Source of the DNA: an uncultured archaeon
GTDB lineage: Archaea; Iainarchaeota; Iainarchaeia; Iainarchaeales; 0-14-0-20-30-16
Assembly: GCA_964480435.1 (NCBI GenBank)
Contig: CAYZSS010000010.1
Location: 1 to 29,091, forward strand
Reading direction: 5' to 3'
Length of the DNA: 29,091 nt
Positions 2,379 through 29,091 of the stretch are shown here, piece by piece (the stretch's first letter is position 1; every line of letters starts with the position of its first letter). The notes beneath the pieces are model-generated. The model searched no databases and was not told the origin of the DNA. It saw only the letters and a list, made by a program, of their open reading frames with translations. A program made the position numbers and the translations under genes.

Positions 2379-2411
2379 TTTTGGGTAACTTACCCTTTAT
2401 TAAAAGGGCAG
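2379..2411 (+). repeat. tRNA-flanking hairpin motif, copy A (ends at position -1 of tRNA-Ser)
   Basis: TTTTGGGTAACTTACCCTTTATTAAAAGGGCAG. Internal stem ACCCTTT/AAAGGGT-like (CCCTTT..AAAGGG). Near-identical to copies at 2550 and 20449. Confidence 0.85.
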
Positions 2412-2494
2412 GCAGGGGTAGCGAAGTGGCTAACGCGTCAGACTGCTAATCTGATCTCCGTAAGGAGGCGAGGGTCCGAATCCCTCTCCCTGCG
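2412..2494 (+). tRNA. tRNA-Ser (anticodon GCU), class II with long variable arm
   Basis: Manual cloverleaf: acceptor GCAGGGG/TCCCTGC (one G-U), D arm GCG..CGC, anticodon stem TCAGA/TCTGA with loop CTGCTAA. Variable arm CTCC-GTAA-GGAG, T arm GAGGG-TCCGAAT-CCCTC, discriminator G. No encoded CCA. Confidence 0.9.
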
Positions 2495-2495
2495 T

Positions 2496-2529
2496 CCAGC
2501 CTTTTGAAAAAAGGCTAGGTTTGCCAAAA
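2496..2529 (-). repeat. Degenerate inverted copy of the hairpin motif (copy F) abutting the tRNA-Ser 3' end
   Basis: Minus-sense TTTTGGCAAACCTAGCCTTTTTTCAAAAGGCTGG aligns with the motif: TTTTGG-CAA-C-TA, a T-run/A-run hairpin, then a C-G end. Confidence 0.5.
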
Positions 2530-2549
2530 CCTCATGTAGAGGGATTCAT

Positions 2550-2583
2550 TTTTGGGCAACTTACCCTTTTCCTAAAAGGGCAG
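2550..2583 (+). repeat. tRNA-flanking hairpin motif, copy B
   Basis: TTTTGGGCAACTTACCCTTTTCCTAAAAGGGCAG, 34/34 identical to 20449..20482. Confidence 0.9.
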
Positions 2584-2606
2584 TTCGAATCCCCCTCTCT
2601 GCGTCT
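2584..2606 (+). pseudogene. Diverged duplicate of the tRNA-Ser 3' end (T-loop to discriminator region)
   Basis: TTCGAATCCCCCTCTCTGCGTCT matches 2475..2497 (TCCGAATCCCTCTCCCTGCGTCC) at 19/23. It carries a canonical TTCGAAT T-loop. No matching 5' tRNA portion lies adjacent. Confidence 0.6.
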
Positions 2607-6122: not shown

Positions 6123-7523
6123 ATGGCAAAAACATATATGAGTCATACTAAATACATAATTTACCAAAAATTTAAAGTAAAAGGTGTAGTAGAAAAACAT
6201 GATATTATTGGTGCAATATTTGGACAAAGCGAAGGTTTAACCGGGGAAGATTTGTCCCTTAAAGAATTGCAAAGTAATGGTAAAATCGGAAGAATTGAGC
6301 TTGTAGTTGAATCAAAAAATGGTGCAACTGAAGGAACAATAGAAATACCATCAAGTGCAGATATGGTTGAAACTGCAATTTTAGCAGCAACTATTGAAGC
6401 AGTTGATAAAGTTGGTCCTTGTGATGCTGAATTTCTTACTGAAAAAATAGAAGACACAAGAACACAGAAAAGAAAGAATATTGTTACAAGAGCAAAATCC
6501 TTGTTAGCTATTTTGATAAGAGACCAAATCCCAGACAGTCAAGAAATAACTAGGGCTGTTGAAGAGGAAGTAAGGTCTTCAGAAATAACTAGCTACGGAC
6601 CAGATAAAATTCCTTGTGGACCATCAATAAATGATGCAGATGAAATTATACTGGTTGAAGGAAGAGCGGATGTAATAAATCTACTAAAATATAATATAAA
6701 AAATGTTGCTGCTTTTGGTGGTTCAAACATTACAAAAACAGTAGTAGATTTATGTAATAAGAAAACTACTCTTGTGTTTATAGATGGAGATAGAGGTGGA
6801 GAATTAAATCTAAAGAAGTTAATGCAAATGACTAATGTAGATTTTGTTGCAAGAGCGCCTCCTGGTAGAGAAGTAGAAGAACTGGCTAAGAAAGAAATTC
6901 TAATGTGCCTAAAGAAAAAAATGCCTATTGTTCAAACAAAAAAAGAAGGCAGCAATGATATAGAATTATCTTATTTAGATAACCAGTTGCCAGAAGAAAC
7001 TTATAAAGAAAAAGAGCCTCAAGTAAAAGTTATTGAAATAAATAAGCCTTTTGATCGTTCAAAAGAAATTGAAAAACCAAAAGTAGAAGAAAAACCAAAA
7101 AGTTTTGAAAGACCAAAAGAGGCAGAAAGGCCGAAATTTGAGCCAAGACCAAGAACTAATTTCCCTGAAAGAGGTGCACCTAAACCTTTTGAAAGAAGTT
7201 ATCCTCCCAGAGAAAGAGAGCCTAAGCACGACAGCAATAGAAAACTGATTGAAGATGTGGATGTGTTTGATGAATTGAATAAACTTAAAGGTAAATTCAA
7301 AGCAAACTTGTACGCTACAGGAAAATTAGTTGAAAGTGTGCCTGTAAGGGATTTAATTAAAGCCATGAAAGAAAACAAGAATGTTTCTATGATAATCTTT
7401 GATGGAATTATAACAAAGAGACTGGCTGAAATGGCAAAAGGCAAGGGCGTAAAAGAAATAGTTGGAGTAAAAGTAGGAAAAATGAGTGCAATAAAAGGAA
7501 TAAATATTACTTCTTTGGAGTAG
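6123..7523 (+). CDS. dnaG: Archaeal DnaG primase-like protein (TOPRIM) with a low-complexity insert
   Basis: Archaeal DnaG N-terminal block IIGAIFGQSEGL. TOPRIM motifs ILVEGRADVINLL and FIDGDRGGEL. Pro/Lys/Glu/Arg-rich insert at about 6993..7244. Confidence 0.85.
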   Translation: MAKTYMSHTKYIIYQKFKVKGVVEKHDIIGAIFGQSEGLTGEDLSLKELQSNGKIGRIELVVESKNGATEGTIEIPSSADMVETAILAATIEAVDKVGPCDAEFLTEKIEDTRTQKRKNIVTRAKSLLAILIRDQIPDSQEITRAVEEEVRSSEITSYGPDKIPCGPSINDADEIILVEGRADVINLLKYNIKNVAAFGGSNITKTVVDLCNKKTTLVFIDGDRGGELNLKKLMQMTNVDFVARAPPGREVEELAKKEILMCLKKKMPIVQTKKEGSNDIELSYLDNQLPEETYKEKEPQVKVIEINKPFDRSKEIEKPKVEEKPKSFERPKEAERPKFEPRPRTNFPERGAPKPFERSYPPREREPKHDSNRKLIEDVDVFDELNKLKGKFKANLYATGKLVESVPVRDLIKAMKENKNVSMIIFDGIITKRLAEMAKGKGVKEIVGVKVGKMSAIKGINITSLE

Positions 7524-7655: not shown

Positions 7656-8333
7656 ATGCCTGTAATGAATAATGGTTTTGCCCAGATTCCAAACGGAAAC
7701 AAAAAAACCGCTTTGGGTTTAGCAGCATTTATTTTAGTTATTAGCGGGGCAGCAGGATTTATAAGGTATTTAGATGATGAAAATAATAAGTTTTTATTGT
7801 CTGACTCCGCAGTGCTAGGTAAAGCAACCAAAGAAAGTTTGGCAAAAATACATAGTCGCCAAATAATAGAATTAGAATCTATCTTTGGTGTAAGCATTGA
7901 TCATTCTGTTAGTGCTAATTTATTTTTGAAGAATATAGAACCCAAAAAACTGATTTTTAACTTAATTAAATTAAGGTTAAGAAGAGAAATAAACCAGCAA
8001 GTTCTTCCTGATTGGTTAACCCCTATTTATGATAAAATAAACTCTTCTAGTAAAGAAGATCTAATGTATCTTTATGATAGGGTTAAGAAAATAAAAAGTT
8101 TTTCTCACGAATTAAAAGACCCGGATCAATTAAGAGATTGGCGTAAATTTAAACATGAGAGAAAAAAGAAGGTTAATAAATTTCAGACTAACTTAATAGA
8201 AAGAGAAAAAGTAAGAAGAATGGTTTTAAATGCTCGTGCAAAAAGATTTGGCGAAAAAAGATTTGAAAGGCCTGGAACAGGAAGATCCGCTTCTTTAGAA
8301 AGAACAAGATTTAGACCTCAACATAGGATATAA
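7656..8333 (+). CDS. Hypothetical membrane-anchored protein, paralog 1
   Basis: N-terminal hydrophobic helix ALGLAAFILVISGAAGF. Colinear similarity to 8510..9190 (IFG, IEPK, LP..P.Y.KINS, ARAKR). Identical C-terminus ERTRFRPQHRI. TAGTGAT Shine-Dalgarno-like site upstream. Confidence 0.7.
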   Translation: MPVMNNGFAQIPNGNKKTALGLAAFILVISGAAGFIRYLDDENNKFLLSDSAVLGKATKESLAKIHSRQIIELESIFGVSIDHSVSANLFLKNIEPKKLIFNLIKLRLRREINQQVLPDWLTPIYDKINSSSKEDLMYLYDRVKKIKSFSHELKDPDQLRDWRKFKHERKKKVNKFQTNLIEREKVRRMVLNARAKRFGEKRFERPGTGRSASLERTRFRPQHRI

Positions 8334-8509: not shown

Positions 8510-9190
8510 TTGGTTAAAGAATTTATTCCTGATGTAAAAACTAGTTCTTCTGGTTCGTTGCCTTATTTTTTGATTGGAGTTTCGCTTTTGGGGTTCTTGA
8601 TAACACTTGGAATTATAAAAAACAAAATCGAATATGCAAAACTAGTAAAAAAACAATTATCCTCAAAAACAATAGATTTAATGGAAGATAATATTACTAA
8701 ACAACTGACTGCTTTGGAAAAAATATTTGGTGATGAAACTATTTTTAATACAAAACTAATTAAAATGTTAAAAGAACAAGCAATAGAACCTAAGGAATTA
8801 GTTATTGACTTAATAAGAGGCAGAGGAAAAATAAATCCACAAATTCTGCCCGAAGAAATCGTTCCTTTGTATAGAAAAATCAATTCTCTGGAGCCTAAGG
8901 AATTAGAAAAATTCTATTATGAAGTAAATAGGCTTAAAGGAGTAGAATTAGAACTAACTAACCCAGAACAAAAAAAAGAATGGTATGAATTTAGAAAACT
9001 TAGGGAAGACCGGGCAAAACAACAAGTAAATGAAATCCAATCCAGAATGATGAAACAAGGGCGTGTAAAAGAATTAGTTCTAAGGGATCGTGCTAAAAGA
9101 GCAGAAAGATATAAAGCTCGTGAAACTCCCAGAACCGGAAGACTAGCATCTGCTGAAAGAACAAGATTTAGACCTCAACATAGGATATAA
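8510..9190 (+). CDS. Hypothetical membrane-anchored protein, paralog 2
   Basis: TTG start preceded by GGTGAT. N-terminal helix YFLIGVSLLGFLITLGII. Colinear with paralog 1 and shares the same C-terminal 11 aa. Confidence 0.7.
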   Translation: MVKEFIPDVKTSSSGSLPYFLIGVSLLGFLITLGIIKNKIEYAKLVKKQLSSKTIDLMEDNITKQLTALEKIFGDETIFNTKLIKMLKEQAIEPKELVIDLIRGRGKINPQILPEEIVPLYRKINSLEPKELEKFYYEVNRLKGVELELTNPEQKKEWYEFRKLREDRAKQQVNEIQSRMMKQGRVKELVLRDRAKRAERYKARETPRTGRLASAERTRFRPQHRI

Positions 9191-17701: not shown

Positions 17702-17832
17702 TTCCATTACTAGCTTTTTTTATAACCATTTCTTTAGATCTTGCGAAATTTCTTTTTTTATAGTAGTCCAAACAATTATATACCTTGTTTTTGTTATATA
17801 TATGGTCTTATCTAGACGCGTAGGTGATTTTT

Positions 17833-19434
17833 ATGAATGCTGAACAAAAGAAATTATACAATACTTTAAACGAGCATAGAAAAGCATATGTTAATTTTGA
17901 TATCCCTGATGAAAAAAATGGGGAATATCTTCTGTGTGTATTTCACTTTTTGCCAAATAAAAAGTTAAATGTTTTACAAGCTGCAGCAGAGATTTCTGCA
18001 GAATCATCAACCGGAACAAATTTTAAAGTAAGTACTGAAACAGCATTTTCAAGAAAAATGAATGCTTTAGTTTACAAAATAGATACAAAAAAAGAATTAG
18101 TTTGGATTGCATATCCTTGGAGATTGTTTGATAGGGGCGGAAATATACAAAACATACTTACTTACGTGGTAGGAAATGTTTTAGGAATGAAAGAAGTAAA
18201 TGCTTTAAAATTATTAGATATGTGGATACCACCGGCAATGTTGGAACAGTATGATGGGCCATCTTATACTCTTGACGATATGAGAAAATATTTGAATGTA
18301 CATGGTAGACCTATTTTAGGAACAATAATTAAACCAAAAATGGGTTTAACTTCCGCTGAATATGCTGAAGTTTGTTATGATTTTTGGGTTGGTGGAGGGG
18401 ACTTTGTAAAAAATGATGAGCCCCAGGCAAACCAAGATTTCTGCCCTTTTGATAAGATGGTTTTGCATGTAAAACAAGCAATGGCTAAAGCAGTAAAAGA
18501 AACAGGCAAGAAAAAGGTGCACTCATTTAATGTATCTGCTGCGGATTTTGACGAAATGATAAGAAGATGTGAATTAATTAGAAATGCTGGATTTGAGCCA
18601 GGAAGCTATGCCTTTTTGATTGATGGCATTACTGCTGGTTGGATGGCTGTCCAAACATTAAGGAGAAAGTATCCTGATGTGTTTATACATTTCCACAGGG
18701 CCGCACATGGCGCTTTTACTAGACCTGAAAATGCATTTGGATTTAGTGTTCTGGTATTGTCTAAATTTGCAAGATTAGCTGGAGCAAGTGGAATACACAC
18801 AGGAACAGCAGGAATAGGAAAAATGGAAGGTACTCCTGATACAGATATAATTGCTGCAAAAGAGATTGAGAACCTAAAAACAACGGGACCATTTTTTGAG
18901 CAATCTTGGTCAAAGATTCCAGAAAGAGATAAAGATATGATTAAACTTGTGCAGGAAGATTTGGCACACCATGTAATTCTTGAAGATGATAGTTGGAGAG
19001 GGGTAAAGAAATGTTGCCCAATAATATCAGGTGGATTAAATCCAACTTTATTAAAGCCATTTATTGATGTAATGGGCAGTGTAGATTTTATTACTACGAT
19101 GGGGGCAGGCTGTCATGCTCATCCTGATGGTACTCAGGCAGGTGCTAAAGCTTTAGTGCAGGCCTGCGAAGCATACAAAAAAGGAGTATCAATAGAGGTA
19201 TATGCAAAGACCCACAAAGAATTAGCAAGAGCAATTGAATTCTTTGGAAAAAATAAAACAAAAACTAAGGATAAGAAGCCAACTAAGACAAAAAAAATAA
19301 GTAAACCAAAAAAAGCTTTGCCAAAGAAAATAACTAAAAAAATAAAAAAAGTTACTAAACCTAAAGTAGTAAAAAAGGTAGTAAAAAAAACACCAAAGAA
19401 AAAAGCAGTAATTAAAAAAGTAAAAAGGAAATAA
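17833..19434 (+). CDS. rbcL: RuBisCO large subunit, form III / II-III type, with a lysine-rich C-terminal extension
   Basis: AESSTGT, GNVLGMK, KPKMGL, GGDFVKNDEP (carbamyl-Lys/Asp/Glu), HFHRAAHGA, GIHTGT, SGGLNP and GAGCHAHPDG are all present. AGGTGAT Shine-Dalgarno site before ATG 17833. Tail from about 19249. Confidence 0.9.
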   Translation: MNAEQKKLYNTLNEHRKAYVNFDIPDEKNGEYLLCVFHFLPNKKLNVLQAAAEISAESSTGTNFKVSTETAFSRKMNALVYKIDTKKELVWIAYPWRLFDRGGNIQNILTYVVGNVLGMKEVNALKLLDMWIPPAMLEQYDGPSYTLDDMRKYLNVHGRPILGTIIKPKMGLTSAEYAEVCYDFWVGGGDFVKNDEPQANQDFCPFDKMVLHVKQAMAKAVKETGKKKVHSFNVSAADFDEMIRRCELIRNAGFEPGSYAFLIDGITAGWMAVQTLRRKYPDVFIHFHRAAHGAFTRPENAFGFSVLVLSKFARLAGASGIHTGTAGIGKMEGTPDTDIIAAKEIENLKTTGPFFEQSWSKIPERDKDMIKLVQEDLAHHVILEDDSWRGVKKCCPIISGGLNPTLLKPFIDVMGSVDFITTMGAGCHAHPDGTQAGAKALVQACEAYKKGVSIEVYAKTHKELARAIEFFGKNKTKTKDKKPTKTKKISKPKKALPKKITKKIKKVTKPKVVKKVVKKTPKKKAVIKKVKRK

Positions 19435-20275: not shown

Positions 20276-20306
20276 AAAAAAGAAAAATAAGGAAAAGAAT
20301 AAAAAG

Positions 20307-20378
<72 letters not shown>

Positions 20379-20410
20379 ACTGCCTTTTTCCAAAAAGGCA
20401 AGTTGCGAAA
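20379..20410 (-). repeat. Degenerate hairpin motif copy D abutting the tRNA-Thr 5' end
   Basis: Minus-sense TTTCGCAACTTGCCTTTTTGGAAAAAGGCAGT is followed directly by G1 of tRNA-Thr. It shares GCAACTT, a hairpin and CAG with the 34-nt motif at nearly the same distance from the tRNA start as copy A. Confidence 0.65.
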
Positions 20411-20448
20411 AAGGCATATCCCTCTGGGATATCGCGGTGGCTCAGTTG

Positions 20449-20482
20449 TTTTGGGCAACTTACCCTTTTCCTAAAAGGGCAG
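20449..20482 (+). repeat. tRNA-flanking hairpin motif, copy C
   Basis: TTTTGGGCAACTTACCCTTTTCCTAAAAGGGCAG, 34/34 identical to 2550..2583. Confidence 0.9.
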
Positions 20483-20502
20483 CCACTGAGCCACAGAAGC
20501 AC
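20483..20502 (-). pseudogene. Orphan duplicate of tRNA-Thr positions -2 to 18
   Basis: CCACTGAGCCACAGAAGCAC is 20/20 identical to 20361..20380. Similarity continues into the adjacent GCCTTTTT..AAAAAGGC hairpins, about 45 nt in total. Confidence 0.7.
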
Positions 20503-20704
20503 GAGCCTTTTTAGAAAAAAGGCAAAAAGTCAGTTTGCCTAACAAACTGCTTTAGGCCCTCAAACAATTTGCCTAAAGCAAATTGCTTTGTTGGCACCGT
20601 CTGCCAAAAACACGAACCTAAGTTGCCCAAGAAAGGCGTCTCGCAATTTTATTAATATACTATAACGACAAAAAGTTTATATCGTTGTGTGATTTCTATT
20701 ACAT

Positions 20705-28962: not shown

Positions 28963-28997
28963 TGAACTGGTACTTAAGTGAAGTTTTTGAATAACCT

Positions 28998-29017
28998 ACT
29001 CTTTTTTTGAAAAAGAG
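28998..29017 (-). terminator. T-run hairpin immediately 3' of tRNA-Phe
   Basis: Minus-sense CTCTTTTTCAAAAAAAGAGT follows the discriminator base directly. tRNA-Thr is followed by the same CTCTTTTT. Confidence 0.5.
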
Positions 29018-29091
29018 TGGGAAGAGAGGGATTTGAACCCTCGACACATAGGTCTTCAGCCTATTGCTCTTCCGGACTGAGCTACCTTCCC
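29018..29091 (-). tRNA. tRNA-Phe (anticodon GAA), 5' end coincides with the window edge
   Basis: Reverse complement is GGGAAGG-TA-GCTC-AGTCCGGAA-GAGC-A-ATAGG-CTGAAGA-CCTAT-GTGTC-GAGGG-TTCAAAT-CCCTC-TCTTCCC-A. No encoded CCA. Confidence 0.9.

Follow-up and report, generated by a model that had tools for sequence, protein, structure and literature searches.

Why is an intact tRNA gene bracketed by inverted copies of a short hairpin repeat, and why does a third copy of that repeat lead into a diverged duplicate of the 3′ end of the same gene? This arrangement surrounds tRNA-Ser(GCT) on contig CAYZSS010000010.1 of an uncultured archaeon (assembly GCA_964480435.1). The window analyzed here is the whole NCBI contig (29,091 nt, GC ∼30%), which terminates exactly at the 5′ end of a tRNA-Phe gene. 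The repeat, here called M, belongs to a previously undescribed family of ∼34-nt hairpin repeats in DPANN archaea that lie almost only at tRNA ends, in tRNA introns and at broken-off tRNA pieces, where they resemble the scars of small insertions. The scope of the finding is much wider than the tRNA-Ser locus described in the initial annotation of this sequence.

The M repeat at tRNA genes of the window

M is a 33–34-nt motif that consists of a conserved 5′ box (TTTTGGGCAACTTA), a hairpin of 16–28 nt with the form CCC(T)n..loop..(A)nGGG, and a closing CAG. Its 20-nt core, TTTTGGGYAACTTACCCTTT, occurs three times in the window (the third time beside tRNA-Thr, at 20449–20482) against 0.02 occurrences expected from shuffles; the copies at tRNA-Ser are real and statistically far beyond chance. 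A covariance model built from 19 copies of M gave six matches in the window, at 2379 (+), 2497 (−), 2550 (+), 20380 (−), 20449 (+) and 28985 (+), all with E ≤ 0.002. Every one of the six adjoins a tRNA or a tRNA fragment, and none falls elsewhere in the 29 kb. The hairpin of degenerate copies is preserved through paired changes (CCC/GGG to GCC/GGC). Formal covariation in a MAFFT alignment did not rise above that of shuffles, the changed copies being one column out of register; we therefore take the hairpin structure as likely, not proven.

The tRNA-Ser gene itself (2412–2494, + strand) is intact, being called by ARAGORN and scoring 59.3 bits with the Rfam tRNA model. The first copy, M_A (2379–2411, + strand; 47.0 bits, E 1e-8), ends at position −1, as the initial annotation had stated, so that its CAG end adjoins +1 of the tRNA. 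Two nucleotides before M_A stands a second kind of hairpin, K (AGTATGCTTGAGCGAAGCGAAACATAC; 2350–2376, + strand). K also precedes M at a tRNA-Gly gene (L006) and within a tRNA-Ser(TGA) intron (L027), and it is located solely on the distal side of M. The degenerate inverted copy noticed behind the tRNA, M_B (2496–2529, − strand; 41.8 bits), is complementary to 2379–2412 at 76% over 34 nt. Its CAG-equivalent end faces the tRNA 3′ end, and its hairpin is maintained by a compensatory GCC/GGC pair.

Beyond M_B, repeat comparison identifies an inverted copy of the tRNA-Ser 3′ end (2533–2547, − strand; reverse complement GAATCCCTCTACATG), followed by the canonical copy M_C (2550–2583, + strand). The duplicate of the tRNA 3′ end that abuts M_C (TTCGAATCCCCCTCTCTGCGTCT; 2584–2606, + strand) reaches from the T-loop to 3 nt past the discriminator. 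Its match to 2475–2497 is 19/23, the value given initially, and a shifted register (2583–2605 against 2474–2496) yields 20/23. The inverted copy at 2533–2547 can pair with 2587–2596, enclosing M_C in a 10-bp stem (AGAGGGATTC/GAATCCCCCT). The arms of M_B and M_C (2500–2529 and 2550–2579) are 77% complementary and thus form terminal inverted repeats, with analogous pairs at the tRNA-Thr gene of the window and at a tRNA-Gly gene elsewhere (L019). Further out lies an older decayed unit (2607–2678, − strand). It comprises a long T/A hairpin of reverse-complement M type with a TAAGT box (2607–2654) and, at 2655–2678, what is left of a hairpin and of a T-arm (TTCTGACCCTC). The unit resembles the trailers at the orthologous loci of relatives (L045, L041), in an alignment that is ambiguous, and this likeness suggests that generations of units have been stacked here.

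The same design is present at tRNA-Thr(GGT) (20306–20378, − strand; intact according to ARAGORN and the Rfam tRNA model), and is therefore not specific to tRNA-Ser. Directly upstream of this gene, with a 1-nt spacer, lies the degenerate copy M_E (20380–20412, − strand; 36.3 bits). Sequence comparison places a palindromic hairpin, GGCATATCCCTCTGGGATATC, and then GCGGTGGCTCAGTTG at 20413–20448 (+ strand), the latter copying part of the tRNA-Thr 5′ end in sense-like form, oriented opposite to the gene itself. The canonical copy M_D (20449–20482, + strand) follows, and after it an exact duplicate of the tRNA-Thr 5′ end (20483–20502, + strand; identical to 20361–20380 at 20/20 positions), which covers tRNA positions 18 to 1 and 2 nt upstream. 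Because the opposite-orientation copy precedes M_D and the duplicate follows it, a 10-bp stem (GTGGCTCAGT/ACTGAGCCAC) holds M_D in its loop, the architecture seen around M_C at tRNA-Ser. The identity of M_C with M_D covers M and no more (34/34 nt), their flanks being unrelated. Read on the minus strand, the duplicated tRNA-Thr 5′ fragment comes after a degenerate M-like hairpin (20503–20539, − strand). At the third tRNA gene, tRNA-Phe(GAA) (29017–29091, − strand; ARAGORN and Rfam tRNA model), a degenerate M (28985–29020, + strand; 25 bits, E 0.002) points into the tRNA 3′ end.

A second composite motif, CTTTGTTGG-N6–8-CCAAAGAAAA-CACGA..CTAAGTTTGC, occurs near both loci (2703–2755 at tRNA-Ser and 20577–20636 at tRNA-Thr) and contains extra, hairpin-less copies of the M 5′ box. 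The motif is also found downstream of a tRNA-Cys gene in another genome (L021, ∼215–300).

M did not correspond to any catalogued family. In Rfam scans at gathering and E-value thresholds, tRNA alone passed and the weak matches were noise. Inspection of M by eye for hammerhead, hepatitis delta virus (HDV), twister and C/D box core motifs revealed none. On these two grounds, a known RNA family or ribozyme was ruled out. A scan of IMG/VR viral contigs returned chance matches only, inside coding regions, and a viral or plasmid origin was rejected on that basis. A literature search on a 13-mer of M and related strings gave no match.

Distribution and probable turnover of M in other genomes

One genome per prokaryotic species was scanned with the exact pattern of M, and JGI metagenomes were scanned with a gapped pattern; both scans were blind to tRNAs. 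The loci compared are labeled L001–L061, of which L035 belongs to the window's genome. The motif-only scans yielded 11 distinct archaeal loci, with record titles that include Aenigmatarchaeota and Iainarchaeum. M adjoins tRNA exon sequence in 10 of the 11, and its CAG end faces the exon every time. Together with the placement of all six window copies at tRNA sequence, this argues against a motif spread over many non-tRNA sites, which the initial annotation had named as the outcome that would undo a link to tRNA genes. Lineages whose annotations place them in different DPANN groups have nearly the same 5′ box. Matches in bacterial genomes (L002, L005, L008, L010, L012–L015, L017) were discarded as chance, since they lack GGGCAG after a T/A hairpin; they lie in ordinary sequence, and three of them score weakly with the covariance model (23.6 bits or less).

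M occurs at several tRNA boundaries. It stands directly 5′ of tRNA-Gly (L006, L019), tRNA-Met (L009) and tRNA-Ser(TGA) (L027), with a spacer of 0–1 nt, and also directly 5′ of tRNA-Phe (L031, spacer 2–3 nt) and tRNA-Val (L035) at loci fetched by other routes. It points into tRNA 3′ ends, with a junction that reads 73/U/CUGCC-hairpin, at L003 (twice), at L016 and in the gene-neighborhood loci L041, L045 and L058. Reverse-complement copies occupy canonical 37/38 introns in L001 (Gly-CCC), L007 (Thr-CGU), L011 (Ser-GCU) and L016, as called by ARAGORN with intron detection and by a separate scan for bulge-helix-bulge (BHB) structures. Each of these four introns has a proper helix-bulge-helix-bulge core. 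The reverse-complement M begins 1–5 nt past the 5′ splice site, and a degenerate second M finishes close to the 3′ one. The h′ helix of L001 is made by the two ends of this inverted pair, CUG and CAG. A sense-orientation M is found in front of the 3′ exon in L027.

M is often paired with a second, inverted copy in an M-unit of ∼70–105 bp with outward CTG...CAG termini. Given its presence both at tRNA ends and in introns, the recurring entity is either this inverted unit or a single M at a tRNA end. A separate observation concerns tRNA-Met(CAT), which in L009 (1216–1359) and L021 (371–514) has a 70-nt intron with C/D-box-like elements (GATGATT ... CTGG) as well as M at the 5′ end. The intron recalls that of Nanoarchaeum equitans tRNA-Met, which holds a C/D-box small RNA.

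The duplications that accompany M-units follow a common rule. Each extends from a tRNA loop to the tRNA end while the intact tRNA is retained (Ser 20/23, Thr 20/20, L019 Gly 20/20). In tRNA-Ser of the window and tRNA-Gly of L019, the duplicated stretch starts at tRNA position 54/55 and ends 1–3 nt beyond the tRNA; in tRNA-Thr, it spans position −2 to position 18. Duplications of 19–23 bp always end at the tRNA end, and M-bearing introns show no direct repeat.

Comparison of orthologous loci revealed occupied and empty sites. Related genomes differ by inverted M pairs of ∼70–105 bp that are flanked by duplications of 19–23 bp. The tRNA-Gly gene of L019 is followed directly by a 69-nt inverted M pair and an exact 20-nt duplicate of the tRNA 3′ end, and its orthologue in L006 has neither. 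The tRNA-Thr gene of a relative with ∼68–70% protein identity (L058) has a single upstream M, without the duplicate or second unit. In the window's genome, tRNA-Val carries M at −1 (L035), whereas the region upstream of its counterpart in L041 is free of M and contains only TATA-like A/T-rich stretches. Two alleles of the tRNA-Phe leader were recovered on contigs with exactly the same neighboring protein, which come from other assemblies of this organism. One (L031, 4135–4260) has a single M, and the other (L030, 10574–10760, and L032) has a partial M, a K hairpin and another M; they part exactly at the tRNA 5′ end (+1), where the window contig stops.

Hairpins are also shared between tRNA genes, whose leaders are mosaics of exchangeable hairpin modules, K included, common to different tRNAs. 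An almost identical M subtype, GGCAGACTGTGCC, is found in a tRNA-Ser leader (L041), in the tRNA-Phe trailer of the same genome (L058, 91% complementary) and in a tRNA-Phe leader (L030). Another hairpin, H2 (GAAAGCTTTTTGCTTTAAAGCAAAAAGTTTCAG), is common to the tRNA-Val leader of the window's genome (L035, 6287–6440) and the tRNA-Ser leader of L061 (1240–1368).

Contig ends at tRNA genes fall on M repeats, which are a plausible cause of such breaks. Contigs of two independent assemblies (L035, L036) end exactly at the tRNA-Ser discriminator (2494), and the neighboring contigs (L039, L040) start 17 nt earlier, at 2478. These breaks are suggestive of strain heterogeneity, although they may be an artefact of the inverted repeats in the assembly graph. 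We set them aside as proof of heterogeneity at the tRNA-Ser 3′ end, since telling a variant from a repeat structure needs reads.

The tRNA-Ser arrangement is old, because it is common to orthologous loci. In L045/L046 and in L061 (∼67% identity in Memo), the order is tRNA, reverse-complement M-type hairpin, inverted T-arm fragment, degenerate M and 3′ fragment (TGGATCCCTTTCCCTGCG), after which comes a shared right flank; L041 retains part of the arrangement only. The 3′ fragments are each closer to the tRNA than to one another, and they are better preserved than the surrounding intergenic sequence. Slow decay could account for this preservation, as could gene conversion against the tRNA or a function of some kind.

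Possible origins of M-units and their alternatives

We give about even chances to the proposal that a process at the level of DNA inserts, exchanges and removes M-units, as small non-coding modules, at tRNA genes. The copies would then be scars of a non-autonomous insertion and recombination module directed at these genes. The proposal starts from what is observed: the anatomy of M, its restriction to tRNA boundaries, the presence/absence differences between relatives and the identical copies at two loci. From these we infer action on DNA, with either target duplication on insertion or an att-like exchange. The initial annotation had considered three explanations, namely a small tRNA-targeting element that left an att or target duplication, a processing or circularization scaffold, and a separately expressed 3′ tRNA piece. 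The first is best supported, because the design recurs at tRNA-Thr and at tRNA-Gly of L019, the L006 site is empty and the L058 tRNA-Thr site is unoccupied.

The process would place the CAG end of M against a tRNA exon boundary. Landing in the D- or T-loop would duplicate the 19–23 bp between the loop and the tRNA end, and since this stretch is duplicated, the intact tRNA would be kept. A unit at position 37/38 would be tolerated, since splicing takes it out like any other BHB intron. The order at tRNA-Ser could then be read as M_A, the tRNA, an inserted unit (M_B, the inverted fragment and M_C), the displaced old 3′ end (2584–2606) and the older decayed unit. The tRNA-Ser 3′ fragment and the tRNA-Thr 5′ fragment would each be a duplicated or displaced target, a fossil and not a gene piece. 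Candidate mobilizers include an integrase, a casposase-like or HUH enzyme, or plain ectopic recombination between M copies.

Several points weigh against this proposal. No recombinase or transposase was recognized in or near the units when the translations of the window's open reading frames (ORFs) were inspected by eye, no family search having been run. The terminal repeats of a unit are only ∼76–80% alike even beside a perfect flanking duplication, which is unusual for a fresh transposon insertion. A duplication of 19–23 bp is at odds both with the target duplications typical of DDE transposition and with an integrative element that bears cargo. One locus, L024 (1406–1529), holds the only canonical M copy not adjacent to tRNA sequence, in an M-K-M array that is located upstream of a protein-coding gene and has no tRNA beside it. 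The tRNA-Ser arrangement, although decayed, is common to relatives at ∼67% protein identity (L045, L061), and is thus old yet recognizable; selection or recurrent gene conversion, and not neutral scarring, could account for its persistence. A conserved cellular function could likewise explain why the 5′ box varies so little among DPANN groups. Given this near-identity in distant lineages and the long persistence at tRNA-Ser, M may also serve the host as a terminator, insulator or processing aid.

Known systems offer partial parallels. M resembles tRNA-associated mobile introns and leaders and integration scars, a known kind of feature in a new form. Like attachment (att) sites at tRNA genes, M loci have a direct repeat that runs from a tRNA loop (T-loop position 54/55, or the D-loop) to the tRNA end, with the intact tRNA kept. 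Also shared are decay of the displaced copy, stacking of units beside the tRNA and presence/absence among related genomes. Unlike att sites, M loci have 86–104 bp between the repeats with no integrase or cargo, and in one case it is the tRNA 5′ end that is duplicated. Within the window, the interval between copies holds 86 and 102 nt of non-coding repeat sequence, with neither integrase nor cargo. Classical integrative elements also differ, M-units being a few hundred bp at most, free of cargo and equipped with common termini from one tRNA to another. As these inverted hairpin termini recur at Ser, Thr and Gly genes, the element carries no one fixed attP.

MITEs (miniature inverted-repeat transposable elements) and the repetitive extragenic palindromes and bacterial interspersed mosaic elements (REP/BIME) are likewise short non-coding hairpin units, often in inverted pairs, with multiple diverged copies per genome. 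M differs from them in its confinement to tRNA boundaries and in flanking duplications that are 19–23 bp of tRNA sequence. We know of no cognate transposase or RAYT for M. IS200/IS605 and REP ends carry both hairpins on one strand and lack 20-bp duplications; we rejected them as the identity of M and keep them as an analogy only.

Translocatable archaeal tRNA introns are a further parallel. They have been reviewed together with introns akin to split-tRNA leaders in Thermoproteales and Nanoarchaeum (PMC4390854), and a model based on Caldiarchaeum invokes disruption of tRNA genes by mobile elements with scattered tRNA fragments (PMC3293823). As with M, a single family there occupies leaders and trailers as well as introns of various tRNAs and is tied to scattered tRNA fragments. 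The differences are that M is found in DPANN archaea, has a defined hairpin motif and strict polarity (CAG end toward the exon), and flanks intact intron-less tRNAs on both sides, with loop-to-end duplications. The window copies also differ from BHB introns in lying outside tRNAs, where the flanking helices of the best BHB-like structure are 1 bp; the introns of L001, L007, L011 and L016 do qualify. Casposons (Cas1-dependent transposons) target tRNA 3′ ends with duplications of 14–35 bp, solo terminal repeats and tandem integration (PMC4779613). The likeness of M to these elements is an analogy drawn from the literature; the units are ∼100 bp, and no Cas1 or PolB turned up, no test having been aimed at them.

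A bolder version of the mobile-module proposal, which we consider possible but doubtful, is that M-units are a new non-autonomous mobile module that recognizes the structural boundaries of a tRNA gene, be it the 5′ or 3′ end or one of the D-, anticodon- and T-loops. Such a module might act via tRNA-like folding of DNA or via RNA intermediates at the sites where tRNA processing cuts. If this is true, the landing site decides whether the outcome is a leader, a trailer, a BHB intron or a detached tRNA fragment, and tRNA gene disruption in DPANN archaea has a currently active mechanism. How archaeal tRNA genes acquire introns, become split and shed fragments is an old open question on which current ideas rest on few examples. 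Here, one motif ties leaders, trailers, canonical introns and loop-to-end duplications together. With M as a sequence handle, the disruption of tRNA genes could be followed as it happens in wild DPANN populations, and the enzyme responsible could be sought.

A different explanation, which we regard as unlikely, is that M is a handle for RNA processing. By analogy with archaeal rRNA processing stems, split tRNAs or circular pre-tRNA intermediates, the leader M and the trailer M in reverse complement, or the two arms of an M-unit, would pair and present tRNA or exon ends to the splicing endonuclease. The initial annotation had proposed that leader and trailer pair around tRNA-Ser. When 2379–2529 is folded in isolation, this pairing does form around the cloverleaf, with a 3-nt bulge beside the 3′ end (z = −3.7); in longer contexts, local hairpins win. 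Several features of M fit a processing role. Both tRNA 3′ ends and intron 5′ splice sites show the junction exon/N/CUGCC-hairpin, the unit's CUG/CAG termini supply the h′ helix of a perfect BHB in L001, and the compensatory change from CCC/GGG to GCC/GGC preserves the hairpin. However, no two-bulge BHB was found at the M/exon junctions of the window, the best candidate (CUGC:GCAG) having flanking helices of 1 bp. Among the six tRNAs with both a leader and a trailer copy, cognate pairs match no better than non-cognate pairs, and at many tRNAs (Thr, Val, Gly) M is on one side only. Leader-trailer complementarity is not maintained across orthologues, the 76% being confined to the window, as would not be expected of an rRNA-like stem. 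Outside tRNA-Ser, leader copies mostly carry T5–T7 runs; oligo-T runs terminate transcription in archaea, and those in the leaders would stop read-through. Formal covariation at the level of shuffles likewise lends no help. The idea of a processing or circularization scaffold is thus weakened by the lack of a two-bulge BHB and of better-matched cognate pairs, with the isolated fold in its favor.

It is similarly improbable that M, with the K hairpin upstream, is a lineage-specific transcription module that serves as a promoter-proximal element or leader in one direction and as an oligo-T terminator in the other, its copies and fragments being passive. We give no greater credence to the accompanying claim that copies arise by ectopic recombination and gene conversion between dispersed similar modules. 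The box of leader-type copies is ∼19–31 nt upstream of the tRNA +1, where the transcription factor B recognition element (BRE) and TATA box of a near-leaderless transcript would sit. The T runs on either strand of the M hairpins, the mosaic leaders built of modules common to different tRNAs and the confinement of K to the distal side of M are all compatible with such a role. The box itself (GGGCAACTTACCC) is nevertheless unlike a TATA box, and half of the M copies point into the tRNA antisense. The best-conserved copies are those in introns and trailers, and long hairpins break any fixed spacing. Passive recombination leaves the exact loop-to-tRNA-end span of the duplications unexplained. In N. 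equitans, box A of tRNA genes is TTTAAA at −26 (PMC3491384). A promoter of this type for leaderless tRNAs was rejected here, because the TTTAAA-like hairpin loops of M are at approximately −17 to −7, not −26, and half of the copies are antisense.

The suggestion that M_C and the 20-nt fragment are a separately used 3′ piece of tRNA-Ser, as a split or alternative 3′ exon, appears highly improbable. A chimera of the tRNA body (2412–2474) and the fragment (2584–2603) is still called tRNA-Ser by ARAGORN, and M stands directly ahead of a genuine 3′ exon in L027. Against this, an intact tRNA-Ser(GCT) gene (59.3 bits) is present, and the fragment covers 20 nt only and brings a T-stem mismatch. An intron in the T-loop would have no acceptable BHB (h ≤ 2, h′ ≤ 1). 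The tRNA-Thr fragment is antisense to its tRNA relative to M, and therefore the Ser and Thr loci cannot share a 3′-piece function. The separately expressed 3′ piece of the initial annotation is not supported by these results, and partial tRNA copies of this kind can mislead annotation.

Three other candidates fail on geometry or order: a CRISPR-like array has direct repeats, whereas those here are inverted and their "spacers" are tRNA pieces; the GA/GAA internal loops of the K hairpin do not fit the 3-nt-bulge geometry of a k-turn; and a template-switch or fold-back origin of the direct-inverted-direct fragments does not fit the order of the parts.

Protein-coding genes of the window

The ORF translations of the window look archaeal by eye and include a DnaG-type primase, Pus10, an archaeal CCA-adding enzyme, a form III RuBisCO and a FlaI-like ATPase. 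The assignments of RuBisCO, Pus10 and Memo are backed by precomputed Pfam hits on matching contigs. The source names of the closest protein homologues point to Pacearchaeota, Woesearchaeota and Nanobdellota, i.e., DPANN.

The form III RuBisCO large subunit (17824–19434) ends in a lysine-rich tail of ∼70 amino acids (KKPTKTKKISKPKK...KKVKRK), which is unusual for RuBisCO. The DnaG-like primase (6123–7523) contains a low-complexity insert rich in EKPK/ERPK. Two tandem paralogous ORFs (7656–8333 and 8510–9190), with no function assigned, have the common C-terminus ...ERTRFRPQHRI.

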